Shown in pieces: positions 41,106-56,951 of a stretch of 64,000 bases of DNA (position 1 is the first letter of the stretch; each line of letters begins with the position of its first letter). Source of the DNA: Bacteroidales bacterium (GTDB lineage Bacteria > Bacteroidota > Bacteroidia > Bacteroidales > GCA-2748055). Below the pieces are notes generated by a model, which was given only the letters and a program-made list of their open reading frames with translations, made no database searches and was not told where the DNA came from. The position numbers and the translations under genes were made by a program. The DNA lies in the NCBI GenBank assembly GCA_029210585.1, contig JARGFP010000001.1, positions 144,050 to 208,049 of the forward strand, given 5' to 3'.

Positions 41106-43052
41106 TTATTTTGAAATGATGAACTTTGCATGCCGCGTAACGACATTTCCGGTGCTATCCTGCCCGTTAAGTTCGAGCAGATACCATCCATTAGTGAATT
41201 CACCCGGAAGCGTAATCCTGCCCGTATTGTCATCTACCCGTCCACGGATCAGCAATCTTCCGGAGGCATCATAGATATGGTAGGTTGGCTGTGCAACCGG
41301 CAGTCTGTCAGCATCGTTGAATGCAACTTCCATGAATGACGAAGCAGGATTGGGGTAGATAGACACACTGCCAGCAGTTTCAACGATCCTGCCGGATGCC
41401 GAAGTAACACCATAGTATATTGAATACCAGCCTTCTTCCGGATCCCGGGAAGTGTTCATCTCATCATCGGTTGCTTCCAGGTAGAACCTGACCACACCAT
41501 CCGAGGAAAGTCCCGGATGAATCGCACGGTACACGCCGTCATTCAGTCTGGCAAGCGGTCGTTCGGTGAATGCATCGCCCGAAGAGAAGAATACCTTTAC
41601 TTCGGAGATCTCCCCGTCGTCTTCAACGAGGAACTGCACCTCTGCTTTTTCAGTAAGGATGGGCTGGCTCACATACAGCAGCGTGATGATCGGATCCACC
41701 GGGTTGAGATTGAGCTGGTCCAGTGCACTTGCAGACCTGGTATTGATAAACGGCTTGATACCCTTCCTGACATGGGCCCCGGCGGCTAATTCAAATGAAT
41801 TATAGAAATCCTGGTAGGTGTATCCATAATCCAGCGTCCTGTACAGGTCATCTGCTGCAGCCCCCAGTATCTGCTCCCTGGCACTGTCCAGCCACGGATC
41901 AAGGTGCGTACTGCTGTAGGTCGCATCAAGCAACCGATCCATATAGAAGGAGAACCGGTCGCGGTACACCTGGTGCTGCAGGATTCTTTCGGTCAGGGGA
42001 CGTGGTTCCCCGTGTTTGGACCAGCCATAGATGTCCCTGGTGGTCCAGTCATCATCGAACCACGAGATCCCGAAGGTATTGTCGGGGTCGTAGGGGATGA
42101 ACTCGAACTTGCGCGTTCCTTCGTTGTAATAGAGGTAGTAATTGTTTTTGTTGTAGGAGTATGCATCCCAGTGTCCTGCGAGGATTTCCACCGCCAGGTA
42201 TTTCAGATAGGAATTGATATTGAACACCCTGTTCATTTCAAGGGGAAAAATATCCGGAGTTGTATTATTCAGAATGCCGATAAAGTGTGCCAGGTCGCTG
42301 TAATCATCTGCCTCCACGTTGGTTTTCAGCTCATAGGCCCTCCTTCCGTCGTTTCCCTGTTTATACTTATCCGGGTCGCTCCCCCGGTACACCAGGTCGG
42401 CCGGCCACAGGCATTTGTAGAGGTTGCCATTGTTGTTCCCGAAGCGCAGGTCGACAAATTCCTCATCGACATGTTCCACGTTGAGATAGAGTCCGCGGTA
42501 CGCGCCGTTGATATAGAGGCGGACGTGGTTGGCACGTGATCCGGGCACGCCTGCTTCGCGGAACAGGTACCAGCTAAGCAGGGCGCGTGACATGCTGGGG
42601 TCGTTGTGTTCCCCGTTCAGGTTGATCTTCTCCACCCCGTAAAATTTTTGTCCGCGGATAAAGGTGTTGAGTGACACCTTGAAGGATTTTTTGGCAGAAT
42701 TGCGGGAAGTGTTGCCCCGGAGGCGGAAGCCGATGGAATCGATGGTTTCGGAATAGTTGCCTCGGTTGAAGGTGAACGTAGCCATATATTCATGGTCACT
42801 CTGTTCATTTCCTTCAGCGAGGATCATGGCCAGGGAGTCGGGATGGATGGTGATATCCACTCGTGCCAGCGTGCTGTTATCGAACAATGGTCCGTTAATG
42901 GGGAACCTGTCCTGGGCATTGGCTGCCCCGGAGAGAAGCAAAAAGAACAGTACGTAATGTGTGGCAAACGGTGCCCTTGAGAAAAAATGCATCATACGCG
43001 ATAAAGTTACATGCTTTTTTATGTTTTTTCTTTGGTGGAATGAAAAAATCAC
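41106..43052 (-). CDS. CotH-family protein with T9SS type-A C-terminal sorting domain
   Basis: CotH-like 'GFRLRGNTSRNSAKKSFKVSLN' and 'LNGEHNDPSMSR'. The C-terminal ~80 aa read 'SIYPNPASSFMEV...Y.IYDASGRL...G.Y.LEL', typical of a Por/T9SS CTD. Confidence 0.85.
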   Translation of the reverse strand: MIFSFHQRKNIKKHVTLSRMMHFFSRAPFATHYVLFFLLLSGAANAQDRFPINGPLFDNSTLARVDITIHPDSLAMILAEGNEQSDHEYMATFTFNRGNYSETIDSIGFRLRGNTSRNSAKKSFKVSLNTFIRGQKFYGVEKINLNGEHNDPSMSRALLSWYLFREAGVPGSRANHVRLYINGAYRGLYLNVEHVDEEFVDLRFGNNNGNLYKCLWPADLVYRGSDPDKYKQGNDGRRAYELKTNVEADDYSDLAHFIGILNNTTPDIFPLEMNRVFNINSYLKYLAVEILAGHWDAYSYNKNNYYLYYNEGTRKFEFIPYDPDNTFGISWFDDDWTTRDIYGWSKHGEPRPLTERILQHQVYRDRFSFYMDRLLDATYSSTHLDPWLDSAREQILGAAADDLYRTLDYGYTYQDFYNSFELAAGAHVRKGIKPFINTRSASALDQLNLNPVDPIITLLYVSQPILTEKAEVQFLVEDDGEISEVKVFFSSGDAFTERPLARLNDGVYRAIHPGLSSDGVVRFYLEATDDEMNTSRDPEEGWYSIYYGVTSASGRIVETAGSVSIYPNPASSFMEVAFNDADRLPVAQPTYHIYDASGRLLIRGRVDDNTGRITLPGEFTNGWYLLELNGQDSTGNVVTRHAKFIISK

Positions 43053-43434: not shown

Positions 43435-44109
43435 TCAGTGTTCCCAGAAATCAGTTCCCTTATTATAGATTATATAAAAATGGTAGGGTGAAAAATATTT
43501 CATTTTATAAGTTACAAGCGAACTTTTCTGTCCACAATATTCTTCATATGTACTTTTAACTAACATATCTTTCGGATAATTTGTAATTTCAGAAATATAA
43601 AACTCATTTTCCACAGTTATTGGGTTCATTGGGGTTCCGACATAATACAGTAATCTGTTGCTAAATACAATTGGACTGCCAGATTTTTCAAATTCCAAGG
43701 TTATTATATCCTTTTCTTTTTTCGGGTATTTCAATAAATCACAATCTCTTATTAAAGCCTCATTTATATTGTATTCTGCAATAATTTTTGCTGAATTAGA
43801 TGGAATACGGACAATCTGTTTTTCGGTAAATGATACGGACTCTTCTGAGGATATTGCGTTTGCAACTTGATTTGCTGTCATGAATTTACTATTAAAAGAT
43901 GAACCCGATACAGAAACCCCCGTCCCTTCAGAAACAGTGAAGACTCTATTCTTAAAATAATCATAGGCTATTCCGTTCTGTAAGAAAAAACTCTCTTCCA
44001 TATTTAGGAAAATTGTTTCATCGGTTTTATTATAGAATGTGAATCCAATATTTCCCTTTTCTCCCCATAGGTCATAAATGACTTCACAATTTTCATCTTC
44101 ATAGACCAA
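43435..44109 (-). CDS. Hypothetical protein, probably 5'-truncated
   Basis: 224 codons, AT-rich. The only start is TTG, 11 codons after an in-frame TGA, with no signal peptide or ATG. No family recognised. Confidence 0.45.
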   Translation of the reverse strand: MVYEDENCEVIYDLWGEKGNIGFTFYNKTDETIFLNMEESFFLQNGIAYDYFKNRVFTVSEGTGVSVSGSSFNSKFMTANQVANAISSEESVSFTEKQIVRIPSNSAKIIAEYNINEALIRDCDLLKYPKKEKDIITLEFEKSGSPIVFSNRLLYYVGTPMNPITVENEFYISEITNYPKDMLVKSTYEEYCGQKSSLVTYKMKYFSPYHFYIIYNKGTDFWEH

Positions 44110-44320
44110 ATAATTGTCTCGCTCAACAATCTTTGTCTTTCAGGTAGTAATGTCAGATATTACTAAAGCCAAAATGAACACCTGCCATTAACTGCTTCGA
44201 AAACGAAGATTACGGAACTCCTGTTACACTGATAATCGGCATTTCCCGGAGAATGAAGCAATGAATTATGGATGAGTGGAATGCGTGACAAGGGTTGCAA
44301 TCCACACCGAACAAACCAAA

Positions 44321-44352
44321 AAAGCCGGTACATTGCTGCACCGGCTTTTTTT
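44321..44352. terminator. Bidirectional hairpin terminator
   Basis: aaagccggt-N10-accggcttt flanked by an A-run and a T-run. Confidence 0.6.
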
Positions 44353-45025
44353 CTGGTCTGAATACGAAGGCTGGATTTACTCTTCAGCGGTCTCAGTTTC
44401 CATCACCTTTTCCCAAACCTGGGCTTTCACGATGGTCCTGAGCTTCGTAACATCATCGAACCATTCCACAATAGAATGTAAAGAGGTGGAACACTTTCAG
44501 AAGGGACAATTTGTGTCAGGCGGCAACGCAAGGGATGATAACAGGCATTTATGTTAAATGTGCTTAGTAAGTTGAAAACATCCTGATCATTGGATTGGTT
44601 CGCACATATTACACTGATTAACAACTATTTAACATGATGATTACTGCCTTTTTCATTTTTCCTGCTGTAACCGACGTAGTTTACCCGAAGCTGGCCCTTC
44701 AAAAACAGGCCCATGACCTAATAAGCAGCCAGGGGATTATTCCCTGCAGTTGCATGAAGATTCAAATCAAATTCTATATTTCGCAACCTGCCTGTTGTTG
44801 CACTCGAAGCAAATACCAATGGTGGCGCCCGGTTTCAAAACATGTGAATGATGTAAAGAATAGGTAAAGTTGTGTAATACATTCTGTATGGAATACGCCC
44901 ACCTTTGTACCTACAGATAGTGCGCCCAGAAAACATGATGGCGGGGAAAATCTGCTTTATGTTATAAAAAAATGTAAAGCCACTACAATGTAATTGACTA
45001 TACCAATAGATTAATACACCATATC

Positions 45026-45175
45026 ATGTCACACGAAAAGGAAAAAAAAGAAAAATCAGGTAAGAAGGTTGCAGTCATGAACCTGAAAGAAAAACGTGCT
45101 GCCAAAGCAGCGAAACGCAATAAGAAAGACCCGTTAAGTTCCGTACTGCTTAATCCTCTTAAGAAAACAAAATAA
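45026..45175 (+). CDS. Candidate 49-aa lysine-rich small protein
   Basis: ATG...TAA ORF below the ORF-track cutoff: MSHEKEKKEKSGKKVAVMNLKEKRAAKAAKRNKKDPLSSVLLNPLKKTK. It ends 25 nt before the next gene. An A-rich sequence could produce this ORF by chance. Confidence 0.3.
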   Translation: MSHEKEKKEKSGKKVAVMNLKEKRAAKAAKRNKKDPLSSVLLNPLKKTK

Positions 45176-45200
45176 TTACCATAATAAAAACTTAAACACA

Positions 45201-45605
45201 ATGAAAAATTTAAGAAATATCTCGTTACTGGCACTCATGGTCTTTTTTACCTCATGTATGACGACTATAAAGTTTCCCACTTCTGATGTAACCCCGGCAG
45301 CAGATATCTCGGCTTCGAAGAAGTCTGCGGATAAGAATGGGAATTACAAGATCTCAATTACTGCTAAGAACCTGGCTTCAGCCGACAGGCTGGATCCTTC
45401 ACAAAGTGTATACGTTGCCTGGATTGTCACCAATACTGAGGGAACAAAGAGCATTGGACGGCTTACGAACAAGAATGCAAAAACCGCAAATTTAGAAACA
45501 TTAACACCTTTTGCATTTAACGAGATATTCATTACCGCCGAGGGTCTGTCCGATGTCTCATATCCTTATGGGATTGAGATTACCAGGGCAAACTTCAGAA
45601 AATAA
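45201..45605 (+). CDS. Hypothetical lipoprotein
   Basis: Lipobox 'VFFTSC' after MKNLRNISLLALM; 134 aa, beta-rich. No family recognised. Confidence 0.7.
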   Translation: MKNLRNISLLALMVFFTSCMTTIKFPTSDVTPAADISASKKSADKNGNYKISITAKNLASADRLDPSQSVYVAWIVTNTEGTKSIGRLTNKNAKTANLETLTPFAFNEIFITAEGLSDVSYPYGIEITRANFRK

Positions 45606-45640
45606 TTCACTATAAGTCAGAATAATTCAATAACATATTC

Positions 45641-45664
45641 ATAAATAAATAAATAAATAAATAA
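45641..45664. repeat. Tetranucleotide microsatellite (ATAA)x6
   Basis: Six perfect ATAA units ending 4 nt before the ATG at 45669. Confidence 0.95.
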
Positions 45665-45668
45665 TAAA

Positions 45669-46733
45669 ATGAGATTTAAAATAATTTTACCAGTCATAGC
45701 CATGCTATTGCCGGTTGTATTCCTTACAAGCTGCGAAGATGATAACGACAACTTAAAGCCCATCGTAACATCTACATTTCCCCTTGATGATGAAGATGGA
45801 ATTGCACGAAATGCGGTATTCACGGCTACTTTCAGCATGGAAATGGATCCATCAACCATAAATACCACCACCTTCACAGTTAAACAAGGTGCTACTGGTA
45901 TTCCCGGAACCGTAGCGTATGCAGGACAAACTGCGACCTTTTCCCCACTTGGCACGCTGGGAGCATCAACCGATTATTCTGTTACAGTATCTACCAATGC
46001 AAAAAGTGCAACAGGTGAAGCCTTAGCCAGTAATCACACATGGAATTTTACTACAGGAGGGAATCAACTTGGCCTTAACGCTGTGAATCTTCGTGCGGCA
46101 GGCAATTACGTTCTACTTGCAAAAACAGCTGTGAACAATAATCCAACCTCTGCGATTACCGGGGATATTGGCCTTAGTCCGGCAGCAACCTCATACATGG
46201 TAGGTTTTTCTTTAACAGATGAAACAGGGTATGCCACTTCAGACCAGGTTACAGGAAATTTATATGCTGCCGATATGGCCGATCCCACGCCCATTAATCT
46301 TACCACAGCTGTGGAGAACATGATTACGGCATACAACGATGCGGCAGGTCGTTCATTTCCTGATTTTAGTGAATTAGCTTCGGGAAGCATCGGCGGATTA
46401 TCCATTGACCCGGGGCTTTACAAGTGGACCAGTACGGTTGATATATCTTCTGATATCACCATTTCTGGTAATTCTACCGATGTCTGGATCTTCCAGATTA
46501 CCGATAACCTTACTGTCAGCTCAGCATCGAGGGTAATTCTCAGCGGCGGAGCACAAGCAAAAAATATCTTTTGGCAGGTGGCAGGTCAGGCAACCTTTGG
46601 AACAACCTCGCATTTCGAGGGAGTCATCCTATCCATGACAGGCATCACCTTTCAAACCGGTGCTTCATTAAATGGTCGTGCTCTGGCACAAACAGCCGTT
46701 GTGCTCGATGACAACGTTATTGCTCAACCATAA
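45669..46733 (+). CDS. DUF3494 ice-binding-protein-like lipoprotein with N-terminal bacterial Ig-like domain
   Basis: Lipobox 'VFLTSC'. An Ig-like segment follows ('TSTFPLDDEDGIARNAVFTATFSMEMDPSTIN..TFTV'). The DUF3494 hallmarks then read 'AAGNYVLLAKTAV.N...SAITGDIGLSPAA', 'AYNDAAGR', 'PGLYKW.S', 'NIFWQVAGQATFGTTSHFEGVILS...ITFQTGASLNGRALAQTAV.L'. Confidence 0.85.
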   Translation: MRFKIILPVIAMLLPVVFLTSCEDDNDNLKPIVTSTFPLDDEDGIARNAVFTATFSMEMDPSTINTTTFTVKQGATGIPGTVAYAGQTATFSPLGTLGASTDYSVTVSTNAKSATGEALASNHTWNFTTGGNQLGLNAVNLRAAGNYVLLAKTAVNNNPTSAITGDIGLSPAATSYMVGFSLTDETGYATSDQVTGNLYAADMADPTPINLTTAVENMITAYNDAAGRSFPDFSELASGSIGGLSIDPGLYKWTSTVDISSDITISGNSTDVWIFQITDNLTVSSASRVILSGGAQAKNIFWQVAGQATFGTTSHFEGVILSMTGITFQTGASLNGRALAQTAVVLDDNVIAQP

Positions 46734-46759
46734 AGGATAAGCAATCCTCCCTGCATTAA

Positions 46760-46791
46760 AGGAGCTGCCAGATGGCAGCTCCTTTTTTTTT
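46760..46791 (+). terminator. Rho-independent terminator
   Basis: aggagctgcc-agat-ggcagctcct followed by T9. Confidence 0.85.
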
Positions 46792-46850
46792 ATGATTGCT
46801 CCTCCATCTCATCTTTTTCAAAAGGACCTCTGCCCCGTGAAATCCAATAT

Positions 46851-46887
46851 GTGTGAATAATACAAATCTTAGGCTGAATTATGTAAC
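46851..46887 (+). promoter_or_regulatory. Copy 1 of bipartite motif GTGTGAAT-N23-TGTAAC
   Basis: Exact 8-mer and 6-mer with an exact 23-nt spacer. The element ends 55 nt upstream of the ATG at 46943. Confidence 0.7.
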
Positions 46888-46942
46888 AGGAAAGGTACGT
46901 TTGTCCAGTATCTTTGGGTATATAAATTAAAAAAAATACAAG

Positions 46943-47278
46943 ATGAAAAAAATTATTTTTTTCGTGATCGTCGCGGTATTCACATTGAGCTCATCATTAG
47001 TATTTGCCGGGAATACCGACAGAACCGCTGATCCGGATAAATTGGCTGTTCCCGCGCAAACGGAAAACAAATTATCTGATGCTGAAATTGACCGCATCAC
47101 AAAACGTGTTGAAGAAATCCGCAACATGGACAAAGGTGACTTAACCTCAGAAGAAAAAATTGAACTTAAAAATGAAATGAAGGAAATGAGAAAAACTATA
47201 AAAGGTCCTGGTGGGGTGATTTACATTGGTGCCGGTTCACTTTTATTAATTATCATCCTTGTAATATTGTTGGTTTAA
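46943..47278 (+). CDS. Small secreted / C-terminally TM-anchored coiled-coil protein
   Basis: Signal peptide, charged helical middle (EEKIELKNEMKEMRK), and a C-terminal 'GGVIYIGAGSLLLIIILVILLV' anchor. Confidence 0.7.
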   Translation: MKKIIFFVIVAVFTLSSSLVFAGNTDRTADPDKLAVPAQTENKLSDAEIDRITKRVEEIRNMDKGDLTSEEKIELKNEMKEMRKTIKGPGGVIYIGAGSLLLIIILVILLV

Positions 47279-47298
47279 TTAGGGGTTCGTTCAACATT

Positions 47299-47334
47299 TG
47301 TGCAGCACGCTTCATGTGCTGCACATTTTTTTTG
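47299..47334 (+). terminator. Rho-independent terminator
   Basis: tgtgcagcac-N7-gtgctgcaca followed by T8. Confidence 0.85.
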
Positions 47335-47431
47335 TTAAACATCCAATGTGAAAAGTTACCCATCCAACCGGGTACAAAAGAACAGGCAAGCAAGTATATG
47401 AGGGCGCCATATACCTCTTCAAATAATCATC

Positions 47432-50400
47432 ATGGCAGGCATCCATCCATCAAAAATCAACATGAAAATTCCTTCCGGCACCCTGGATTCCCGGAGGTTT
47501 CTATGCATCTGTTTGTTTGCTGCCGTATCATTTTATACTGCTTTCTCCCAGGAGTATTTCCAGCAGGAAGTCAAATACACGATCAGCGTTACGCTTCGGG
47601 ATACGTCTCACGAGTTAGATGCGTTTGAAAAAATCGTGTACATCAACCATTCTCCCGATACGCTTCATTTTATCTATTTCCATCTTTGGCCAAATGCCTG
47701 GTCGGACAACAATACCGCTTTGGCCAGGCAGGTATTCCAGGTGAACGGGCCATCAAAGTTGTTCAATGATCCGGAATTGAAAGGGTATATTGACGCACTG
47801 GACTTCCAGGTAAATGGCAGCCAGGTTCAATGGAACTTACTGACTGACCGGCCCGACATTTGCAGGATTGAACTGAACCAACCCCTGGAAGCCGGCGATA
47901 CAATGCACATTACCACACCCTTCCATGTTAAAATACCCAGTGGTGCTACATCCAGGCTGGGACATATCGGGGAATCCTATCAAATCTCCCAGTGGTATCC
48001 CAAACCGGCGGTATATGACCGGGACGGATGGCATCCAATGTCTTATCTCGATCGGGGTGAATTTTATTCAGAATTCGGATCTTTCGATGTCAGGATTACA
48101 CTTCCCTCCAACTATATTGTGGGAGCAACCGGGAACCTGCACAGCCAACAGGAGATTGAAATGCTTGATGCACTTGCTGCCGACACCTCCTGGACAGATG
48201 CCTCGCACATTGGGAAAGTCCCGTTTCCGGCTTCGACAAAACAGGTGAAAACCCTGCACTATACCGCCAATGCGGTGCATGATTTTGCCTGGTTCGCCGA
48301 CAAGCGATTTAATGTAATGAAGGGGCATGTATCACTTCCCGGCTCAGGCAGGGAAGTTACCACCTGGGTGATGTTTACCAACAGGCAGTCCAACCTCTGG
48401 AAGGAGGCCCTGAATTACGTAAATGACGCGATTTTATGGGCCTCAATGAAAACCGGTGATTATCCGTACCAGCATTTCACGGCCGTTCAAAGTGACCGGA
48501 GTGCCGGTTACGGTATGGAATACCCGGGAATCGCTGTAATTGGTATTGCAAAGGATGCATACACGCTGGACGTTGTGCTGACACACGAAATTTTTCATAA
48601 TTGGTTTTATGCGGCACTGGCATCAAATGAGCGCAAGTATCCGTTTATGGACGAAGGCATTACAAGCGCATATACAACGCGGTATTTGAATCAAAAATAT
48701 CCGTATAAAAAACTTTGGCAAGTGTATCTGAAAAACTGGGAACTGGCCCGGTTTCTAGATATCGACCAATTGCCAGTGGAGCGGATGCGGGAGCTGGAAT
48801 GGCTTATACAGGCCCGCAGCAACCTCGAACAGCCAGTGAATTTGCCTGCAACCGAATACAGTGAAATAAATTATGGCATATCCCTTTACAATAAAGCCGA
48901 TCTTGCCTTCAATTATCTGCGGGAATTCCTCGGAGATTCGCTATTTGATGCTGCCATGCGCGAATACTATCAGAGCTGGATGTTCATGCATCCTCAACCC
49001 AACGATTTGCAACAAGAGTTTGAAAAGAAACCCGGCAAAAACCTGGATTGGTTTTTTAATGATTTAATAGGCACTAATCAACGCCTGGACTATCAAATGG
49101 TGCGCATAAAGCAACGCCAGGTGCTTATCAAAAACAAGGGCGAACTGGTAGCTCCGCTCATTGTTGCCGGCATGAACGGAGATTCCGTCTTTTTTGAAAA
49201 ATGGGTGGATGGATTCGCAGGTCAGCAATGGATCGAACTGCCCGACGGTAATTATACAGAAATTAGCATTGACCCCTGGCATGTAATGCCCGAAATTCAC
49301 AGGATGAACAACAACATCCGGAAAACAGGTACTTTTCCCCGGACCGATCCCATACATACCCAGCTCCTTTTTACCCTTGATGATCCTGAAAAACACACAC
49401 TTATGTACTTACCGTTAATCAACTGGACGCGGGAAAACGGGTTTATGGCGGGGTTGGCAGTCTATAACGGAATGATCATTCCAAAGCATGCGGAATTTGT
49501 TGTAATACCGTTTTATGCATTCGGAAATAATGATTTGGCAGGATTTGGCAAGATCACTTACAAGATTACACCCTACGATACATTTATCAGGCTGGCAGAA
49601 ATTTACCTGGAAGGAATCCGGTTCGGTGCACCGGGCAACCAAAACTACAGGAAGGTAACAACCGGGGCTGATTTGTTTTTCAGAAACCAGGACATGAGGA
49701 GCCCGCTTTCCCACCAATTATCAGGGGAATACATTTTTGCCTCCAACCTTTACCAGGTTGAACTTCAGGAGCAGGCTAAAATGAATTTTTTTATCCATTA
49801 TGGTTATCGGCTGGAGAGGCGCAGTACCATTCATCCATTCACCCTGCAGGCAGGTTATGAATCCGGAAGATCACACCAAAAAACTACGGTTGAATTCAAT
49901 TACAGACTGGGTTACTATGGCAGGAAGAATGGATTGGACCTCCGATTCTTTGCAGGGACCATGCTGAAAGAAGATCCGAAATTTCCATTTTATTCGTTTG
50001 CACCAGGAGGCAGAAGTGGTCGCGAATTATATCTTTTCCAGGAGACCTTTCCCGACCGGTTTGCCGTTTTCCCAACCAATTTATGGTCGCGACAAATGAG
50101 CCTGTCCGAAGGAGCTTTGGTGACGCCTGTTAATGAACACCTGGGCTACAGCCGCTGGCTTGTTTCCCTGTCGTTGACCAGCAGTTTGCCTGGAAAAATC
50201 AGCCGGTTGCCACTGAAGCCTTTTGTCAATCTGCTTATAAACGACCAGAGGGCCGGCAGTAATAACGCTCCGCCCATTTTCTATGAGGCAGGCATAAAAA
50301 CAGGTCTTTGGAATATCCTGGAAATATATGTCCCATTACTGGTTTCCAACAACATCGCATCAGTCGGTGGACCATTCAAAAACAGGATTCGTTTTGTTTT

Positions 50401-50443
50401 CTCACTCGGCTCATTTGACACTAAACGGTTGGTCTCAAGATGA
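47432..50443 (+). CDS. M1-family zinc metallopeptidase with long C-terminal extension
   Basis: Exact gluzincin signature HEIFH-X18-E ('HEIFHNWFYAALASNERKYPFMDEG') and a signal-like N-terminus. An alternative start (MKIPSG) lies at 47462. Confidence 0.9.
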   Translation: MAGIHPSKINMKIPSGTLDSRRFLCICLFAAVSFYTAFSQEYFQQEVKYTISVTLRDTSHELDAFEKIVYINHSPDTLHFIYFHLWPNAWSDNNTALARQVFQVNGPSKLFNDPELKGYIDALDFQVNGSQVQWNLLTDRPDICRIELNQPLEAGDTMHITTPFHVKIPSGATSRLGHIGESYQISQWYPKPAVYDRDGWHPMSYLDRGEFYSEFGSFDVRITLPSNYIVGATGNLHSQQEIEMLDALAADTSWTDASHIGKVPFPASTKQVKTLHYTANAVHDFAWFADKRFNVMKGHVSLPGSGREVTTWVMFTNRQSNLWKEALNYVNDAILWASMKTGDYPYQHFTAVQSDRSAGYGMEYPGIAVIGIAKDAYTLDVVLTHEIFHNWFYAALASNERKYPFMDEGITSAYTTRYLNQKYPYKKLWQVYLKNWELARFLDIDQLPVERMRELEWLIQARSNLEQPVNLPATEYSEINYGISLYNKADLAFNYLREFLGDSLFDAAMREYYQSWMFMHPQPNDLQQEFEKKPGKNLDWFFNDLIGTNQRLDYQMVRIKQRQVLIKNKGELVAPLIVAGMNGDSVFFEKWVDGFAGQQWIELPDGNYTEISIDPWHVMPEIHRMNNNIRKTGTFPRTDPIHTQLLFTLDDPEKHTLMYLPLINWTRENGFMAGLAVYNGMIIPKHAEFVVIPFYAFGNNDLAGFGKITYKITPYDTFIRLAEIYLEGIRFGAPGNQNYRKVTTGADLFFRNQDMRSPLSHQLSGEYIFASNLYQVELQEQAKMNFFIHYGYRLERRSTIHPFTLQAGYESGRSHQKTTVEFNYRLGYYGRKNGLDLRFFAGTMLKEDPKFPFYSFAPGGRSGRELYLFQETFPDRFAVFPTNLWSRQMSLSEGALVTPVNEHLGYSRWLVSLSLTSSLPGKISRLPLKPFVNLLINDQRAGSNNAPPIFYEAGIKTGLWNILEIYVPLLVSNNIASVGGPFKNRIRFVFSLGSFDTKRLVSR

Positions 50444-50462
50444 CGGGTGTACACGCTGACAT

Positions 50463-50499
50463 GTGTGAATCATGTAATTCTTTGGAATGATGATGTAAC
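50463..50499 (+). promoter_or_regulatory. Copy 2 of bipartite motif GTGTGAAT-N23-TGTAAC
   Basis: Exact 8-mer and 6-mer with a 23-nt spacer. It starts 20 nt after the M1 peptidase stop and ends 65 nt upstream of the ATG at 50565. Confidence 0.7.
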
Positions 50500-50564
50500 G
50501 CTTTCTGCATTGCAAATGCTGACCTTCGTATAGTAGAATCAGAAACAAAAATAAATTTAATTGT

Positions 50565-50750
50565 ATGTCCGTATTAACAATCCTTATCGTAATCCTGGTA
50601 GCCGGGGTGATACTCTGGCTGGTGAACAGTTACATTCCCATGCAACGAACAATCAAGACAATTCTGAATGTCGTTGTGATCGTCATCCTTGTGATTTGGC
50701 TGCTGAAAGTATTTGGCATTCTGGATAATTTAAACAGCATAAATATATAG
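50565..50750 (+). CDS. 61-aa two-TM membrane protein (resembles the Thivi_2564 family)
   Basis: 'LTILIVILVAGVILWLVNSYIPM...IKTILNVVVIVILVIWLLKVFG'. The family name is from memory. Confidence 0.65.
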   Translation: MSVLTILIVILVAGVILWLVNSYIPMQRTIKTILNVVVIVILVIWLLKVFGILDNLNSINI

Positions 50751-50951
50751 CAACACTTTGTGCTGAAAGAAATTCCAGGCAACAACCCGGAGGTCCGGTC
50801 TGGGAAATTGGCGCTTTTCAAGACTTCTATGAGAACAGGGAGAAGTCTATTGCATCAGGATGTAAGAACCATGTCACCAAACCATTAGACAGCGTCAGAT
50901 TAAACATAATGATCAACAACTATTTTTCAGAATTCATTAAAAACTAACATC

Positions 50952-51107
50952 ATGGGAAATTTACTTTACATTGTCGCAGTAATCCTGATTATTGCTTGGG
51001 CAATCGGCTTTATTGGGTACAGTGCAGGTGGGCTCGTACACGTTTTACTGGTAATAGCAGCTATTATAATTATAGTGAAGCTTTTGCAGGGAAGAAGGGT
51101 TTTTTAG
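50952..51107 (+). CDS. 51-aa two-TM membrane protein (lmo0937/DUF5670-like)
   Basis: Not in the ORF track (under 60 aa): MGNLLYIVAVILIIAWAIGFIGYSAGGLVHVLLVIAAIIIIVKLLQGRRVF. The two TM helices and basic C-terminal tail match the lmo0937 family as I recall it. Confidence 0.7.
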   Translation: MGNLLYIVAVILIIAWAIGFIGYSAGGLVHVLLVIAAIIIIVKLLQGRRVF

Positions 51108-51158
51108 AGGTTTTGAAAGCACTGTTTAAAATCTTCAACCATCAACAGGAGAATAAAG

Positions 51159-51204
51159 AAACGCCCCGTAAAACATGCAACATTGCATGTTTTACGGGGC
51201 GTTT
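51159..51204. terminator. 21-bp perfect hairpin, bidirectional terminator between convergent genes
   Basis: aaacgccccgtaaaacatgca-acat-tgcatgttttacggggcgttt, with A-rich 5' and T-rich 3' flanks. Confidence 0.75.
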
Positions 51205-51217
51205 TAAATATGCTGAT

Positions 51218-51898
51218 CTAGAACCTGTATCCCAGCGACAGTCCGTAGCCGGTATTTTTCAGCAATGCATTATTATCAGCACCTATCCGGTTGTCTTCAG
51301 GATTGATATTGATCAACCCAAGTTGTGTATTCAACTGCAAGAACAGTCCGGACGATAATTCGTAACCGAAAAACAGGTTGGCGCCGGCATCAAATGGCTT
51401 CATATATACCGTGGTAAGGGGATCGCCGGATTCCACCACATTCTGGAATTCAATATCCGTCTCAATTTCCACAGATCCGCTTTCGTAAATAACTTTACCG
51501 CTGATACCATATGCCACATAAGGACCGAATCCAAGCATAAAATAACCATTGCCAACCAGGGCCTTATAAACAAAATTCAGAGGCAGTTCAATATACGAAA
51601 GCTTGTATGTGCCTGTTATTGATAACATTGTGTTTTTAGCTCCTTTGGTGCTAAACATCAACCCGGGCTGAAAATAAAACTCGGGGGCAACAGGAAGCTG
51701 CAGATTAACCCCGGCGTGAAAACCGATGAGCAGGTCATTTTCCAGTTTGCTGCCATCTTCATGCTGTCCATTCAAATTTTGAAAATTAACGCCACCGAGA
51801 ATCGCAAAGGAAGTTTTTGAACCAGCAGGTCCCTGGGCAAATGCCACAGATCCTGTAAGTGCGAAAATCAGTATCAGTGAAAATATTTTACCTTTCAT
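51218..51898 (-). CDS. Outer-membrane beta-barrel (porin-family) protein
   Basis: Signal peptide ending AFAQ, alternating beta-strand pattern, C-terminal 'GYGLSLGYRF'. Confidence 0.8.
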   Translation of the reverse strand: MKGKIFSLILIFALTGSVAFAQGPAGSKTSFAILGGVNFQNLNGQHEDGSKLENDLLIGFHAGVNLQLPVAPEFYFQPGLMFSTKGAKNTMLSITGTYKLSYIELPLNFVYKALVGNGYFMLGFGPYVAYGISGKVIYESGSVEIETDIEFQNVVESGDPLTTVYMKPFDAGANLFFGYELSSGLFLQLNTQLGLININPEDNRIGADNNALLKNTGYGLSLGYRF

Positions 51899-51926
51899 TA
51901 TGTAATGTATTATAAATTATTAGAAA

Positions 51927-52607
51927 TTAATTGGACGCTTCTTTTGCTGCTTCAGCTTTCATTTTTTCATTGGCTGTGATCAGAAATTCAACCCTGCGGT
52001 TCTGGGTCTGACCTTCTGCTGTATCATTTGAGTATTTTGGTACATTTTCGCCAAAACCCTTGATTGATAAACGGTCGTATGTAATTCCCTTAACCGACAA
52101 ATAATCAGAAACCTTATTGGCCCGTTCTTCCGATAAGTTCTGGTTATAGGCTTCACTCCCTTTACTGTCGGTATGTCCTTGAATTTCAATATCGGTATCA
52201 GGATAATTATCCAATACGACAACCAGTTTATCCAGGTTTCTTCTGGCATCATCTGACAGATTTGATTGATCGAAAGCAAATAAAATGTTGCTGCTGAATT
52301 CCACAACAATCCCTTCGCCAACACGTTCAACTTTTGCATCGGGAACTGTTTTTGCAATTTCCTCCGCCTGTTTATCCATTTCCCTGCCAATTACGGCACC
52401 GGATGCACCACCTACGGCAGCACCAATTATTGCTCCAAGAGCTGTATTCCCCGAAGCACGACCTATGACTGCTCCTGCTGCACCACCTGTTGCAGTCCCA
52501 ACGGCGGCTCCTTTTTGTGTTTTATTCCATGAAGCACAGCCTGTAAAAAGGAATGCCACGCTTAAAACCACGGCTACACCCATTCTTAATTTTTTCATTT
52601 CTTGCAT
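51927..52607 (-). CDS. OmpA-family lipoprotein with N-terminal glycine-zipper
   Basis: Lipobox 'LFTGC', glycine zipper 'GAAVGTATGGAAGAVIG...GAIIGAAVGGASGAVIG', and an OmpA domain 'ILFAFDQSNL...IQGHTDSKGSEAYNQNLSEERA...NRRVEF'. Confidence 0.9.
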   Translation of the reverse strand: MQEMKKLRMGVAVVLSVAFLFTGCASWNKTQKGAAVGTATGGAAGAVIGRASGNTALGAIIGAAVGGASGAVIGREMDKQAEEIAKTVPDAKVERVGEGIVVEFSSNILFAFDQSNLSDDARRNLDKLVVVLDNYPDTDIEIQGHTDSKGSEAYNQNLSEERANKVSDYLSVKGITYDRLSIKGFGENVPKYSNDTAEGQTQNRRVEFLITANEKMKAEAAKEASN

Positions 52608-52649
52608 CTTAAATTTTGAATAAAGTTATATGCATTTACATCGTGAAAT

Positions 52650-52686
52650 GTTACACAACTCTTAGTATAAGTTACATTATTCACAC
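52650..52686 (-). promoter_or_regulatory. Copy 4 (minus strand) of bipartite motif GTGTGAAT-N23-TGTAAC
   Basis: The plus strand reads GTTACA-N23-ATTCACAC. The TGTAAC end lies 42 nt upstream of the ompA-like ATG (52607). Confidence 0.7.
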
Positions 52687-52704
52687 AATTCGGAATTGTA
52701 AAAA

Positions 52705-52741
52705 GTGTGAATAATGCAAACTTTCCTGTGAATGGTGTAAC
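52705..52741 (+). promoter_or_regulatory. Copy 3 of bipartite motif GTGTGAAT-N23-TGTAAC
   Basis: Exact 8-mer and 6-mer with a 23-nt spacer. It ends 41 nt upstream of the ATG at 52783 and is divergent from copy 4. Confidence 0.7.
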
Positions 52742-52782
52742 ACGATCATACGATAGGTTTTCTATTTTTAGCAACAGATGAC

Positions 52783-52929
52783 ATGCCCTGGAAACTGGCT
52801 GCTGAGCAGTCTGATCTGAGCGCCGGTGCGATACATTTCTATCATGGCAGCAGTAATCATCTTGCTGTTATTGAAGAGTGGAAGAAGCAGGATGACAAAA
52901 TCAGTGCATGGTGCGGGGAGTTGAAATAA
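52783..52929 (+). CDS. Candidate 48-aa small protein
   Basis: ATG...TAA ORF below the track cutoff: MPWKLAAEQSDLSAGAIHFYHGSSNHLAVIEEWKKQDDKISAWCGELK. The only support is its position 41 nt after motif copy 3, mirroring the 42 nt of copy 4. Confidence 0.3.
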   Translation: MPWKLAAEQSDLSAGAIHFYHGSSNHLAVIEEWKKQDDKISAWCGELK

Positions 52930-53122
52930 ACAACCAGATGAAAACCGGTGCTGCTCCTGGAAAGAACCGGATGCACTGTATTAAAGGAGCATCTGAAAAC
53001 GTTACAATAGAATGTGTATATTTATAGTGGTATAATGTAGCTGATTTTCAGCCCGGATACTCATGACAACAGGCATCATAAGGCGGATGGTCACTAAGTA
53101 TACATTGCAAAAACGGAAATAG

Positions 53123-55711
53123 TTGAAAAGTAAAAACACAATACCGTCAGCAACATCAAAAGTTAAGCCACCCGGACGAAATGCGGGAAAATTTCCTGTT
53201 GTGGGTATCGGTGCTTCGGCAGGTGGACTGGAAGCGCTGGAGAAAGTACTAAGCAATGTGCCGAAAAACAGCAACATGGCTTATGTAATCATTCAGCATT
53301 TGGATCCGACACAAAAAGGGATGCTCCCTGAATTACTGCAACGGGTTTCCGGCATGAAGGTTTTCCTGGTCGAAGACCGTATGATCGTAAAGCCTGACTG
53401 CGTATATGTCATTCCACCGAACAAGAGCATGTCCATATACAAGGGTGCGCTTCACCTGTTTGAACCAGTTGAAGCACGCGGACTTCGTCTTCCTGTTGAT
53501 TTCTTTCTACGCTCTCTGGCCGATGACCAGACTGAGTATGCAGTTGGTATAATCCTTTCGGGGATGGGCTCCGACGGCAGCAGTGGGATACGTGCTATAA
53601 AAGAAAAAAACGGGATTGTACTGGTACAGGAACCCGAAACAGCGCGATTTGACAGTATGCCACGGAATGCCATTGATTCAGGGCTTGTTGATATTGTCGC
53701 CCCACCTGACAAGTTGCCTTTTGAACTTATCAATTTTCTGAAGCACCTGCCTGTCGTTAAATCAAACCTGGATGTTGAAGTAAAAGATAAAAGCGCATTT
53801 GAGAAAATAATCATTTTACTGCGTACACATACAGACAATGATTTTTCACTCTATAAAAAAAATACGATCTACCGCCGTATAGAAAGAAGAATGGGCATCC
53901 ATAAAATTGACAATATCTATTCATATGTCCATTTTTTGCAGGAAAATCCAGAAGAGATACACGTCCTGTTCAAAGAATTATTGATTGGTGTTACTGGCTT
54001 TTTCCGTGATCCACAGGTCTGGGAAAAACTAAAAAAAAGACTGATATCCGGACTGAATGATAACATAAAATCCAATACACAATTACGGGCCTGGGTGCCT
54101 GGCTGCTCAACCGGAGAGGAAGCCTATTCTCTGGCCATCGTATTTAAGGAAGCGCTGGAAAAAGTCAATCCCAACTTGCGGGTATCATTGCAGATTTTTG
54201 CTTCCGATCTCGATCGTGATGCTATTGATGTTGCGCGCAAGGGAATTTTCCCGGAAAATATCGCAACCGATATGCCGTCCAGAAGGCTTAGTCGTTATTT
54301 TACCAAAACAGAGGACGGATTCCGCATCAATTCAGAAATAAGGGAAATGGTTGTGTTTGCCCAACACAACATCATTATGCATCCGCCATTTACCAAAATG
54401 GATTTTATTTCGTGCCGGAACCTGCTCATCTACATGAATCCCGAATTGCAGAAAAAAATACTGGGCTTGTTTTTCCACAGCCTCAACAATGAAGGGATTT
54501 TGATACTCGGCACCTCCGAAACGCTAGGTGTGCAAAACCATCTTTTTACGTCGGTTGATAACAGCCTGAAAATTTTCAAACGATCGGCTGATAATCACAG
54601 TACGATTTTGTACGATTTTCCATCTACATTTACAAGGGCCAAAATGGGAAACAGTGATCATACGGAACCTGACAAGCCAATAATGAATATCCAATCGCTG
54701 GCCGACCAACTGCTGCTGCAAAAATTTTTACCTGCCGGAGTCATGGTGAATGAAAACGGCGATATATTGTATATTAGCGGACGAACGGGAAAATACCTGG
54801 AGCCGGCAGTGGGAAAGGCAAACCTGAATATTTTTGCGATGCTAAGGCCCGGTTTTCATAATGATTTTGCCATTGCATTTCGCAAGGCGGTGATGAACCA
54901 GCAAACCGTGGAACTGGAGCATGTTAAAATAGGCACAAATGGAGACACATTAACTGTAAATGTAAATATTCAATGGATTGCTAAGCCTGAACCTTTACAC
55001 GGCAAGCTGATGATTATTTTTACAGATGTTCCGCAAACTGATGGTTCACACCTCCGGAAAAAAAAGGAAAAAAAAGGAGCAGTCAGCGCCAGGGAAGCTG
55101 AACTTGAGCAAGAATTAAAGCATGCCCGCGAAGAGCTACAAAATATTCTCGAAGAGATGCAAACTTCACAGGAAGAGCTTAAATCGACCAATGAAGAATT
55201 ACAATCAACCAATGAAGAACTGCAATCGACCAATGAAGAACTCACCACATCGAAAGAAGAAATGCAGAGCCTGAATGAAGAACTTCAGACAGTAAATGCC
55301 GAATTGATGGCGAAGGTGGAGGATTATTCACGGGTAAACAACGATATGAAAAACCTGCTCAACAGTACCGATATTGCTACCCTGTTCCTCGACAAAGATT
55401 TGAATATACGTCGTTACACCAACCAGGCAACAAAAATATTTAAGCTTATAAAAAGCGACATCGGGAGACCCTTTACCGACCAAGTTTCACAACTTCAATA
55501 TCCCGACCTTCCAGAAGATGCACGCGAAGTGCTGAGGACGCTCATTTTTATGGAAAAGCAAATACCAACCAAAGACGGAAGGTGGTTTTCCATCCGAATC
55601 ATGCCCTACCGTACCCTGGACGACCGGATTGACGGATTGGTTATCACGTTTATTGATATATCAGAATTAAAACTGGTGGAAGAAAAATTACAAAAAATGA
55701 ATAAGTCATGA
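53123..55711 (+). CDS. CheB methylesterase - CheR methyltransferase - PAS fusion signalling protein
   Basis: CheB-like 'VVGIGASAGGLEAL...IIQHLDP', CheR-like 'TGFFRD...RAWVPGCSTGEEAYS', a coiled coil with 'STNEELQSTNEELQSTNEEL', and flanking PAS-like regions. The start is TTG at 53123, with no upstream ATG in frame. Confidence 0.9.
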   Translation: MKSKNTIPSATSKVKPPGRNAGKFPVVGIGASAGGLEALEKVLSNVPKNSNMAYVIIQHLDPTQKGMLPELLQRVSGMKVFLVEDRMIVKPDCVYVIPPNKSMSIYKGALHLFEPVEARGLRLPVDFFLRSLADDQTEYAVGIILSGMGSDGSSGIRAIKEKNGIVLVQEPETARFDSMPRNAIDSGLVDIVAPPDKLPFELINFLKHLPVVKSNLDVEVKDKSAFEKIIILLRTHTDNDFSLYKKNTIYRRIERRMGIHKIDNIYSYVHFLQENPEEIHVLFKELLIGVTGFFRDPQVWEKLKKRLISGLNDNIKSNTQLRAWVPGCSTGEEAYSLAIVFKEALEKVNPNLRVSLQIFASDLDRDAIDVARKGIFPENIATDMPSRRLSRYFTKTEDGFRINSEIREMVVFAQHNIIMHPPFTKMDFISCRNLLIYMNPELQKKILGLFFHSLNNEGILILGTSETLGVQNHLFTSVDNSLKIFKRSADNHSTILYDFPSTFTRAKMGNSDHTEPDKPIMNIQSLADQLLLQKFLPAGVMVNENGDILYISGRTGKYLEPAVGKANLNIFAMLRPGFHNDFAIAFRKAVMNQQTVELEHVKIGTNGDTLTVNVNIQWIAKPEPLHGKLMIIFTDVPQTDGSHLRKKKEKKGAVSAREAELEQELKHAREELQNILEEMQTSQEELKSTNEELQSTNEELQSTNEELTTSKEEMQSLNEELQTVNAELMAKVEDYSRVNNDMKNLLNSTDIATLFLDKDLNIRRYTNQATKIFKLIKSDIGRPFTDQVSQLQYPDLPEDAREVLRTLIFMEKQIPTKDGRWFSIRIMPYRTLDDRIDGLVITFIDISELKLVEEKLQKMNKS

Positions 55712-56280
55712 TCAACGATAATATAGACTATACCGATGCAAAACAGCTGCGCGAGAAAGCTGAAAAGAAATTGACCGAGAGGAAATTGAATAAAAAACAA
55801 TTGACTGCCAGGCAAACCAAAGAGAACAGATTGCTGGCGGAAACACTTCTGCACGAAATACAGGTTCACGAGATCGAATTGGAGATGCAAAATGAGGAGT
55901 TGCGACAGGCCTACCAAACAGCAGAAAAAGCCTTAAAAAAATATACCATGTTGTTTGATCTGGCCCCCATCGGTTATTTCACCCTTGATGTTGATGGATC
56001 CATCTGCGAACTGAATTTTACAGGGGCAGATATGTTGGGTGAAAGGCGCTTTAGCCTGGTCAACAGTAATTTCAAACTTTTTGTTTCAGATGAATCGAGA
56101 CTGGTATTCAATAGTTTTTTTAAAAAGTTATATACCAACGAGGCCAAAGAATCCTGCGAAGTATCACTTGTTCATAACGATAAGCATCTCTTCCGGGTAT
56201 ATATGGAAGGAGTAGTTACAGAGGATGAACAAAAATGCCTGATGACGGTGGTCGATATTTCGAAATTCCTGGATAGGTGA
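55708..56280 (+). CDS. Coiled-coil + PAS domain protein
   Basis: 'HEIQVHEIELEMQNEELRQA' linker then a PAS-like core ('APIGYFTLDVDGSICELNFTGADMLG'). There is a 4-nt ATGA overlap with the upstream gene. Confidence 0.75.
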   Translation: MINDNIDYTDAKQLREKAEKKLTERKLNKKQLTARQTKENRLLAETLLHEIQVHEIELEMQNEELRQAYQTAEKALKKYTMLFDLAPIGYFTLDVDGSICELNFTGADMLGERRFSLVNSNFKLFVSDESRLVFNSFFKKLYTNEAKESCEVSLVHNDKHLFRVYMEGVVTEDEQKCLMTVVDISKFLDR

Positions 56281-56281
56281 A

Positions 56282-56842
56282 TCACACATCTTCAAGTGAG
56301 TCGCGCCTCCTGTTTGTGAGCATTTTGTACTGGGTTAAAGTTAACCCTGTAAATTTTTTAAACTGATTTGAAAGATGCGCAATACTGCTGTATTTCAGCA
56401 TGTATGCTATTTCTGAAAGATTAATCTCATCATACACGATTAATTCCTTTACCCTTTCAATCTTATGTCTCAGGTAAAACTTTTCAATGGTAACCCCGGT
56501 CTTTTCTGAAAAAAGATTGGCAAGATAGGTATAGTTATAATTCAGCTTTTCGCTGAGAAAGTCAGACAGGTTGACTTTAATCTGCTCCTCGGTATAATGC
56601 ACAAGCTCAATAATCAGACTTTTCGTTTTTTCAACCAGTATGCTTTGTTTATCATCCATCAAAAACAGCCCGAATGCTTCTAAGGCTGTTTCCAATTGCT
56701 TTTTTTGCCCGGATTGTATTTCTCCGATAATTTCAGCTTCTCCAATATCGACATAGGAATACTGCAACCCGATTTTTTCCAGTTCGGTTTTCACTACCAT
56801 CTGGCAGCGGATGCACACCATATTCTTAATATATAACTTCAA
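56282..56842 (-). CDS. AraC-family transcriptional regulator with N-terminal CxxC (HMA-like) domain
   Basis: C-terminal AraC HTH ('SEIAYMLKYSSIAHLSNQFKKFTGLTLTQYK') and N-terminal 'KLYIKNMVCIRCQMVVKTELEKIG'. I prefer the TTG at 56842 (giving MKLYIKNMVC). ATGs at 56890 or 56821 are alternatives. The ORF-track start at 57049 overlaps the MFS gene. Confidence 0.8.
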   Translation of the reverse strand: MKLYIKNMVCIRCQMVVKTELEKIGLQYSYVDIGEAEIIGEIQSGQKKQLETALEAFGLFLMDDKQSILVEKTKSLIIELVHYTEEQIKVNLSDFLSEKLNYNYTYLANLFSEKTGVTIEKFYLRHKIERVKELIVYDEINLSEIAYMLKYSSIAHLSNQFKKFTGLTLTQYKMLTNRRRDSLEDV

Positions 56843-56951
56843 TTCATGTTGAATATAAAAGTTATATTGTAAAAATACACTAATAAACATACGTAACTTG
56901 CGCTTATCAGGATATTTTTTCTTTCGATCGTATGTGGATGTAACACCATTC

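Follow-up and report, generated by a model that had tools for sequence, protein, structure and literature searches.

A predicted promoter module conserved across Bacteroidota and its probable HMA-fold/AraC-type regulator

What reads a short DNA motif that recurs, always with the same internal spacing, in front of small envelope-protein genes? The question is raised by a 64,000-nucleotide stretch of the genome of a Bacteroidales bacterium (contig JARGFP010000001.1, positions 144,050 to 208,049; the whole stretch is hereafter called the window), in which an earlier note, made from the sequence alone, had picked out four exact copies of the bipartite motif GTGTGAAT-N23-TGTAAC in intergenic DNA. 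Comparison with other genomes indicates that these copies are probably the operator half of an activator-dependent promoter, read by a 186-amino-acid (aa) protein encoded in the same window that joins an HMA-fold domain to an AraC-family DNA-binding domain.

The four exact copies were re-found by pattern search at the coordinates and on the strands first given, and not one exact copy arose in 100 dinucleotide-preserving shuffles of the sequence, in agreement with the earlier view that they are not due to chance. Six spacer columns (2, 3, 6, 7, 12 and 21) are invariant among the four, so that 20/37 positions are identical; this tally held column by column, and the distances from the TGTAAC end to the next ATG (55, 65, 41 and 42 nucleotides (nt) at sites B, C, E and D of Table 1, respectively) were likewise reproduced. 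The copy number, however, had to be raised, since the window holds five copies and the earlier count had missed site A, which has two mismatches to the pattern (ATGTGAAT...TGTAAT). A weight matrix derived from sites in foreign genomes found exactly these five sites in the window, with scores of 41-65, whereas the next best position scored 2.4 (a gap of ~40 bits) and the maxima in shuffled sequence were ≤5.6. The description of the flanks as not alike proved right only in part. Pairwise identity among the five copies is 0.69 in the core and falls to background (0.26-0.29) in most of the flanks, but it is 0.64 in a box that lies exactly 21 nt past TGTAAC/T in all five. Because flank identity outside the core and this box is at background, the copies are not parts of a longer repeat or of a miniature inverted-repeat transposable element (MITE), a possibility that the earlier note had raised.

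From its sequence, this downstream box is read as a -7 promoter element of the Bacteroidota sigma-A (sigma-ABfr) type (TAnnTTTG; nAnnTTTG here). In flavobacteria the -7 box occupies positions -12 to -5 (PMC9723704), and on this register transcription would start ~5 nt past the box, which places TGTAAC at ~-39 to -34 and TGTGAAT at ~-69 to -63.

We scanned one genome per bacterial and archaeal species with the pattern TGTGAATNATRYAA-N16-TGTAAY and obtained at least 120 loci, each of at most 8 kb. Among these, ~116 came from Bacteroidota, distributed over the Bacteroidales, Chitinophagales, Flavobacteriales, Cytophagales and Saprospirales, and the remaining loci lay on unclassified or probably mis-binned contigs of metagenome-assembled genomes (MAGs). 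One contig from a Woesearchaeota MAG (L108) carries the complete module, including the -7 box TATCTTTG, and one from a Chlorobiales MAG (L022) has the three boxes described below with a poor -7 box (TAAGTTGA); both are probably mis-binned Bacteroidota DNA and not real occurrences outside the phylum. When 155 instances were stacked without gaps, conservation was also found at positions left free in the search pattern, namely AAATG before the first box, a T-rich stretch at 16-20 and AATTR at 26-30 before the second TGTAAC, and flank columns outside the module carried no information. The sequence nAnnTT stood at the 21-nt spacing in 137/157 pattern hits, compared with 4% expected by chance. In the 155 stacked sites the -7 consensus (module positions 58-65) is yACCTTTG, with A in 141/155 (91%), T-T in 154/155 and 149/155, a further T in 80% and G in 94/155 (61%). 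It departs from TAnnTTTG in two ways, as only ~30% of sites have the first T and the "nn" positions show a strong preference for CC, a deviation that may tune activator dependence or reflect another sigma specificity. The -33 TTTG element is not present: in these 155 sites, as in the 149 sites collected by protein similarity (below), its position is occupied by the TGTAAC box and only TT at ~-31/-30 is conserved. As far as the alignments tell, the proximal box stands in for the -33 element.

The module is intergenic and oriented, as expected of a promoter. Over 389 sites (from 200 loci, 120 selected by motif and 80 by protein, plus the window), open reading frames (ORFs) of ≥100 aa enclose the proximal and -7 boxes in only 3% of cases, compared with 70% of bases, and an ORF starts ≤200 nt from the predicted transcription start at 340/389 sites, with a modal leader of 30-40 nt. 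Thus the bias in placement and orientation noted in the window holds at large. The motif is also kept at orthologous promoters across orders, and from these comparisons we regard it as one half, the upstream one, of a phylum-wide Bacteroidota promoter module. The earlier proposal of a "small envelope/stress regulon" therefore stands as to a dedicated promoter or operator of envelope and stress genes, but not as to size, since the regulon is not confined to a few local genes and the module spans five orders. Our survey of the literature on the motif, Bacteroidota general stress, AraC, CsbD/YtxH and start-site maps found no published description of the motif or of its regulator.

Numbered from the T of TGTGAAT, the module reads aAATG-TGTGAAT-n-ATGTAAC-(T-rich)-nnAnAATTR-TGTAAC-AnTT-N17-yACCTTTG. 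Its self-similarity, measured over 149 independent sites, peaks at offsets of 21, 9 and 30 bp (10.3, 9.1 and 8.7 of 21 positions, against a background of ~5-7). Three TGTrAA boxes, each preceded by AAT, start at positions 1, 10 and 31 and, because of these starts, would lie on one face of the helix. The arrangement can be read as two units with a 21-bp period, a distal TGTGAAT-n-ATGTAAC (~-69 to -55) and a proximal AAT-TR-TGTAAC (~-48 to -34). Among the window copies the 21-bp direct repeat is clearest in site E (TGTGAATAATGCAAA / TGTGAATGGTGTAAC). A separate sequence at 56930-56945 on the minus strand, GAATGGTGTTACA, is one mismatch from the site E proximal unit GAATGGTGTAACA; it lies just past the stop codon of an MFS gene and ~90 nt upstream of the regulator start, has no -7 box 21 nt downstream, and may be a chance match or a degenerate half-site.

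Which protein would recognize these boxes? A blastn comparison of the window with the motif loci highlighted the AraC-type gene at 56282-56842, already proposed as a candidate, in many of them, and we therefore examined the linkage in both directions. In the forward direction, a homologue of this regulator was found in 24/120 motif loci listed, full-length (~183-186 aa) in 21, and it was the only DNA-binding family among the recurrent neighbours in these loci. In the reverse direction, 80 metagenomic loci (L121-L200) were chosen by protein similarity to the regulator alone, and sites scoring ≥15 were counted: 72/80 loci carried at least one, with 151 sites in 580 kb. Within 500 bp of the gene there are 11.9 sites per 10 kb, but at a distance of 8-10 kb only 0.19, a ~60-fold drop in density. 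The motif rebuilt from these protein-selected loci (149 sites) was the same, varying between G and A at positions 11 and 32 and between C and T at 36.

The closeness of the two extends to shared bases. In 44/91 regulator genes a site stands in identical register, beginning one base before the last sense codon ends (for example L124:643, L172:10557 and L192:1718). By this register, the stop codon TGA is the TGA of TGTGAAT (...GAA AAT GTG TGA AT), and the last regulator codons (E-N/D-V/M/L) are shared with the AAATG flank of the operator. A downstream site at ≤150 nt is seen for 11 further genes; same-strand sites immediately upstream (autoregulation) are seen for 9, and divergent sites for 18. 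In comparative genomics such a linkage pattern is the classical sign of a transcription factor paired with its operator, and the 186-aa AraC-family protein is very probably the factor that reads the motif; across the phylum, then, tight linkage is seen between the motif and the candidate of the earlier note. The window regulator itself ends in GAA GAT GTG TGA TTCACC, a one-mismatch remnant of the first box (ATGTGTGAtT; 56279-56290), and it has no site behind this remnant because the convergent PAS gene ends there. Upstream of it lies an ordinary-looking -7 box, TAACTTTT, with no operator. The window regulator is probably not autoregulated and would act on five promoters 3.5-12 kb away.

Homologues of the regulator align from residue 1, MKLYIK (alignment A1, 24 homologues). 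Its only Pfam matches are HTH_18 and HTH_AraC, in the C-terminal half; neither Pfam nor NCBIfam gave a specific family for the N-terminal domain, and Pfam HMA was not detected. In an AlphaFold2 model (predicted local distance difference test score of 85), residues 2-62 form a beta-alpha-beta-beta-alpha-beta domain, followed by a linker helix and a seven-helix DNA-binding domain with two helix-turn-helix motifs (residues 85-184). Foldseek searches of the PDB matched the N-terminal part to the HMA domains of TTHA1718, CopZ, Atx1 and ZiaA (template-modelling (TM) scores of 0.62-0.69) and the C-terminal part to AraT, YesN, MarA, SoxS and AdpA (TM 0.74-0.82), and returned no solved structure with both HMA-fold and AraC domains. 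The window protein has C10-x-x-C13, which its close relatives keep without exception; in the family at large C13 alone is kept throughout, and Ser is the usual residue at position 10. Conservation in the family is highest in the putative recognition-helix regions, as would suit an operator that does not vary across the phylum. The N-terminal 90 residues (HMA-fold plus linker helix) recovered 1,379 cluster representatives at 50% identity (E ≤0.001), whose full-length members are typically ~186 aa, and the top full-length homologues, from Draconibacterium, Maribellus and Prolixibacter, are all annotated just as "AraC family transcriptional regulator". Their taxonomy puts the window in the Prolixibacteraceae.

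Of the two readings offered for the motif at the outset, the one we favour is therefore that of an AraC/XylS-type activator site built from TGTGAA/TGTAAC boxes roughly two to three helical turns apart, in view of the phased boxes and the linkage to an AraC-type regulator. In the mechanism that we propose, the 186-aa protein would bind the distal and proximal units, probably as two protomers, with the two helix-turn-helix motifs of each protomer contacting adjacent major grooves. The protein abutting -33 would then recruit the RNA polymerase holoenzyme in a class II arrangement. Two absences, of the -33 TTTG from these promoters and of the first -7 T from most of them, suggest class II-type activation of the sigma-A holoenzyme. 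Physical binding, activation, stoichiometry, start sites and the inducing signal are all what we infer. In the window, five transcription units may be driven in this way, one from each of sites A to E, and across the phylum the same module would drive genes for CsbD, YtxH, UspA and BON-domain proteins and for small cupins.

Several points weigh against this view. The A-box of the proximal unit is weak, with only AAT in common with the distal unit, which weakens the case for two equivalent protomers. Activation as opposed to repression is deduced only from site position and the missing -33 element, and the atypical -7 box, with its rare first T and preferred CC, could mean a different sigma specificity. 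In this genome, where no site follows the stop codon of the regulator or precedes its gene, the link is one of proximity only (3.5-12 kb). More generally, the whole case is one of comparative genomics, and the linkage could arise if the regulator were a mere conserved neighbour or a member of another factor's regulon.

The first rival, which we consider unlikely, is an alternative-sigma promoter, with TGTAAC and its upstream extension as the -35 element, yACCTTTG as the -10 element and the AraC protein a mere regulon member or neighbour. TGTAAC resembles the AAC-type -35 elements of extracytoplasmic function (ECF) sigma factors, the other identity suggested at the outset, and TGTAAC/T is almost invariant. 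This rival would also account for the poorly kept first T and the CC of the -7 box, and for the regulator gene lying downstream of the motif at 15 sites, as a regulon member would. Furthermore, stationary-phase-linked non-canonical promoters of B. thetaiotaomicron have been attributed to ECF sigmas (PMC7366714, PMC12596196). The ECF identity nevertheless fails. Module positions 50-57 carry ≤0.3 bit, and neither CGT nor any other element is found 16-17 nt past AAC over the 155 and 149 aligned sites, extending to both collections what had been seen in the window. The downstream box instead matches the sigma-A -7 box in both sequence and position, and three phased boxes are conserved 30 bp upstream of the would-be -35, where a sigma factor does not read. 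ECF genes normally adjoin their own promoters, yet the 30 neighbour families that recur most in the 120 loci listed include neither sigma nor anti-sigma factors, and only two small sigma-region-2-like ORFs were seen. Finally, the stop-codon register and the 60-fold decay in site density are typical of a transcription factor and its operator.

The second rival reverses the sign of control, with the AraC-type protein or another factor as a repressor or anti-activator of constitutive sigma-A promoters that are de-repressed under stress. We hold it to be about as improbable as the first. A site ending at ~-34 would overlap the -33 region, several AraC-family members both repress and activate, and some -7 boxes are near consensus (TATCTTTG at site B, TACCTTTG at several loci). 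However, these promoters have no -33 TTTG and most lack the conserved -7 T, as in activator-dependent promoters, and the operator leaves the -7 box and the start site uncovered. With its rigid spacing of 21 nt to the -7 box, the site looks placed for a stereospecific contact with RNA polymerase, not for simple occlusion.

A response-regulator site, either of LytTR type (9-bp direct repeats set 12 bp apart, with a 21-bp period) or of OmpR/PhoB type (tandem repeats of 10-11 bp), would fit the direct repeats at 21-bp and 9-bp offsets and the kinases or receivers found near the motif in 33/120 loci listed, but we give it very little weight. The adjacent receivers are single-domain proteins, too short at ~144-149 aa to include a DNA-binding domain as well, output proteins of LytTR or OmpR type are not among the recurrent families of the 120 loci listed, and the linkage is accounted for by the AraC-type protein; the LytTR guess, made from the 21-bp period, was dropped since these loci have no LytTR proteins near the motif. 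That several copies cluster in 8 kb could suggest what is left of a mobile repeat (MITE), a structured RNA or mere chance, but all three can be practically dismissed given the background identity of the flanks, the 0/100 shuffles and conservation at orthologous promoters across orders throughout the phylum, together with the position of the motif upstream of the predicted start and an Rfam scan of 44000-54000 at permissive E-values that gave only sub-threshold chance hits elsewhere and none at the sites.

Given an activator-dependent promoter read by the HMA-fold/AraC protein, the genes behind the five window sites become its predicted targets (Table 1). For the M1-family peptidase behind site B, M1 peptidase-like DNA also occurs in motif loci L004, L006 and L051, in which the motif is followed by an ORF of 105-111 aa that belongs to the 111-aa family. 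Between the predicted start at site E and the CheB/CheR-PAS gene lie ~350 nt (52775-53123). In L038 and L097 a CheB/CheR orthologue lies behind the motif with an M48 peptidase gene in between; no M48-peptidase remnant was detectable in the corresponding gap of the window (52775-53123), and none of the 200 loci contains a homologue of the 48-codon ORF that lies in it (52783-52929). The gap might represent an extended leader, encode a small RNA or be the scar of a deletion. Sites D and E stand back to back (52650-52741), with only 18 bp separating their distal boxes, and a divergent pair of this type is kept in three relatives (L038:3944/4023, L097:4515/4538 and L102:2370/2477), flanked by an OmpA lipoprotein gene in one direction and by M48/CheB-CheR genes in the other. 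Pfam and NCBIfam gave no specific family for the 111-aa protein, the 134-aa lipoprotein or the 49-codon ORF, and searches of the window for homologues of cupin, CsbD, YtxH, single-domain receiver and UspA proteins found none. Just upstream of the regulon cluster, and unrelated to the motif, a CotH-kinase-family protein (41106-43052, minus strand) has a weak, sub-threshold match to a type IX secretion C-terminal sorting domain (25.0 bits compared with a cut-off of 27).

Table 1. Operator sites, -7 boxes, predicted target genes and candidate regulator in the window. Family counts give the sites, among the 389, at which the family is the first gene behind the motif.
Feature	Position	Strand	Remarks
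Site A	44842-44878	+	Boxes TGTGAAT 44843-44849, TGTAAA 44852-44857, TGTAAT 44873-44878; weight-matrix score 60.8
-7 box of site A, CACCTTTG	44900-44907	+	Predicted start ~44912
Site A unit (likely)	45026-46733	+	Pfam; homologues behind motif elsewhere
49-codon lysine-rich ORF (uncertain)	45026-45175	+	Site A
134-aa lipoprotein	45201-45605	+	Site A; homologues directly behind motif in other genomes
Big_5 + Ice_binding protein	45669-46733	+	Site A; ice-binding-like homologues directly behind motif elsewhere
Site B	46851-46887	+	Operator, exact copy; score 44.9
-7 box of site B, TATCTTTG	46909-46916	+	Predicted start ~46921
111-aa secreted, C-terminally membrane-anchored protein	46943-47278	+	Site B; 107-111-aa anchored family at 9 sites
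M1-family peptidase	47432-50443	+	Probable site B target; Pfam
Site C	50463-50499	+	Operator, exact copy; score 57.1
-7 box of site C, GACCTTCG	50521-50528	+	Predicted start ~50533
Thivi_2564-family 61-aa membrane protein	50565-50750	+	Site C; NCBIfam/Pfam; family at 6 sites
lmo0937/DUF5670 51-aa membrane protein	50952-51107	+	Possible site C target; NCBIfam/Pfam; family at 21 sites
OMP beta-barrel protein	51218-51898	-	Site D; family at 7 sites
YiaD-family glycine-zipper/OmpA lipoprotein	51927-52607	-	Site D; family at 18 sites
-7 box of site D, TAACTTTA	52621-52628	-	Predicted start ~52616
Site D	52650-52686	-	Operator, exact copy; score 64.9; divergent from site E
Site E	52705-52741	+	Operator, exact copy; score 41.3
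-7 box of site E, TATTTTTA	52763-52770	+	Predicted start ~52775
CheB-CheR-PAS_10 protein	53123-55711	+	Probable site E target; Pfam
190-aa PAS protein	55708-56280	+	Probable site E target; Pfam
Candidate cognate regulator, 186 aa, TTG start	56282-56842	-	HMA-fold N-terminal domain (residues 1-62), linker helix, AraC-family DNA-binding domain

Beyond the window, the first gene behind the motif over the 389 sites belongs to a limited set of families. Besides those counted in Table 1, it encodes a small cupin of ~118 aa at 37 sites (including L189:10557, L056:6607 and L058:3343), CsbD at 23, an ice-binding-like protein at 18, the regulator itself at 15 and a B12-binding radical-SAM enzyme at 7, and further first genes encode YtxH, UspA, BON-domain, M48, YihY and DnaJ/CbpA-like proteins. 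Judged by these families, the gene content of the module resembles that of a general-stress regulon. The small cupin has weak similarity to Cupin_2 and to AraC_binding, the ligand-binding domain of AraC, and stands directly behind the regulator in 22/117 genes; it could be the sensor of a "split AraC" or a feedback partner. When all ORFs of the 120 loci listed were clustered, the recurrent neighbours were histidine kinases and receivers (the most frequent, in 33/120), OmpA, beta-barrel, ice-binding-like, cupin, UspA and YtxH proteins. A conserved operon runs from operator to regulator, a hybrid PAS-HisKA-HATPase-receiver-HPt kinase (800-1045 aa) and a single-domain receiver of ~144 aa (L031:2444-6404, L048:435-4534, L065, L028, L059, L064 and L119), and the order in Flavobacterium is CsbD, regulator, receiver, kinase. 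Since a kinase and a single-domain receiver are encoded with a regulator that itself has no receiver domain, a phosphorelay that feeds the regulator is suggested.

How does this compare with known systems? In the araI1-I2 sites of AraC and the Pm promoter of XylS, direct-repeat units with a 21-bp period are bound, the proximal unit overlaps -35, and the two helix-turn-helix motifs of each protomer occupy adjacent major grooves. The module resembles these class II systems in its tandem units of 21-bp period, each with two sub-boxes about one helical turn apart, in a proximal unit that abuts or overlaps -35/-33, in a promoter without a good upstream element and in a seven-helix DNA-binding domain. 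It differs in that the regulator has an HMA-fold domain of ~62 aa in place of the cupin ligand-binding and dimerisation domain, the box is TGTrAA, the host polymerase uses the Bacteroidota -7/-33 promoter type, and the operator starts inside the stop codon of the regulator in about half of the homologues. With MarA, SoxS and Rob it shares a small AraC-family protein that is mostly DNA-binding domain (the Foldseek matches 1bl0 and 7w5w), a dispersed stress regulon and a site that is asymmetric, has an orientation and keeps a constant distance to the core promoter. However, the marbox is a single 20-bp monomer site, whereas here 2-3 phased boxes extend over 36 bp, and regulon content and taxon are different and an HMA-fold domain is added.

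Gene content overlaps strikingly with the regulons of sigma-B in Firmicutes, sigma-S in Enterobacteria and EcfG in Alphaproteobacteria, the common part being CsbD, YtxH, lmo0937-type, YiaD/OmpA glycine-zipper, BON-domain, UspA and GSP26-like proteins, with Dps in some loci. As in those sigma-driven regulons, histidine kinases and single-domain receivers are encoded beside the regulator; unlike them, specificity apparently comes from a transcription factor operator in front of a housekeeping-type -7 box. Within the phylum, the PM2 motif of B. thetaiotaomicron is near-palindromic and non-canonical, with elements centred at -10 and -30 (PMC7366714), and was later assigned to ECF sigmas (PMC12596196). 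PM2 and our module are both non-canonical Bacteroidota promoter classes tied to stress or stationary-phase genes, but the module has direct repeats, reaches to ~-69 and keeps a -7 box, the two being set apart here by the text description of PM2 and not by its logo. Thus the mechanism class, an AraC-type class II operator, is already known. What appears to be new is the HMA-AraC architecture, the fusion of the operator to the stop codon of the regulator and a phylum-wide stress-type regulon driven by a transcription factor.

To our knowledge, Bacteroidota have no RpoS, sigma-B or EcfG equivalent, and our literature search found no account of how they coordinate CsbD, YtxH, lmo0937 and OmpA-type lipoproteins. 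We put forward, tentatively and as a possibility that we would not yet bet on, that the module and its HMA-fold/AraC regulator are the master switch of the general stress (stationary-phase/envelope) response of environmental Bacteroidota. Such a response would be based on a transcription factor, fed by a hybrid PAS kinase/receiver phosphorelay and/or by a separate small cupin (a "split AraC", with sensor and DNA-binding domain on two polypeptides), and its operator would be welded to the stop codon of its regulator, an unusual overlap of coding and regulatory sequence. The finding would allow better annotation of thousands of entries now named "AraC family transcriptional regulator" or "hypothetical protein". 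It yields a regulator family, a 36-bp operator with fixed promoter geometry and a regulon that is predictable in any Bacteroidota genome, and, for a phylum in which genetic tools are few, a promoter part that is probably inducible.

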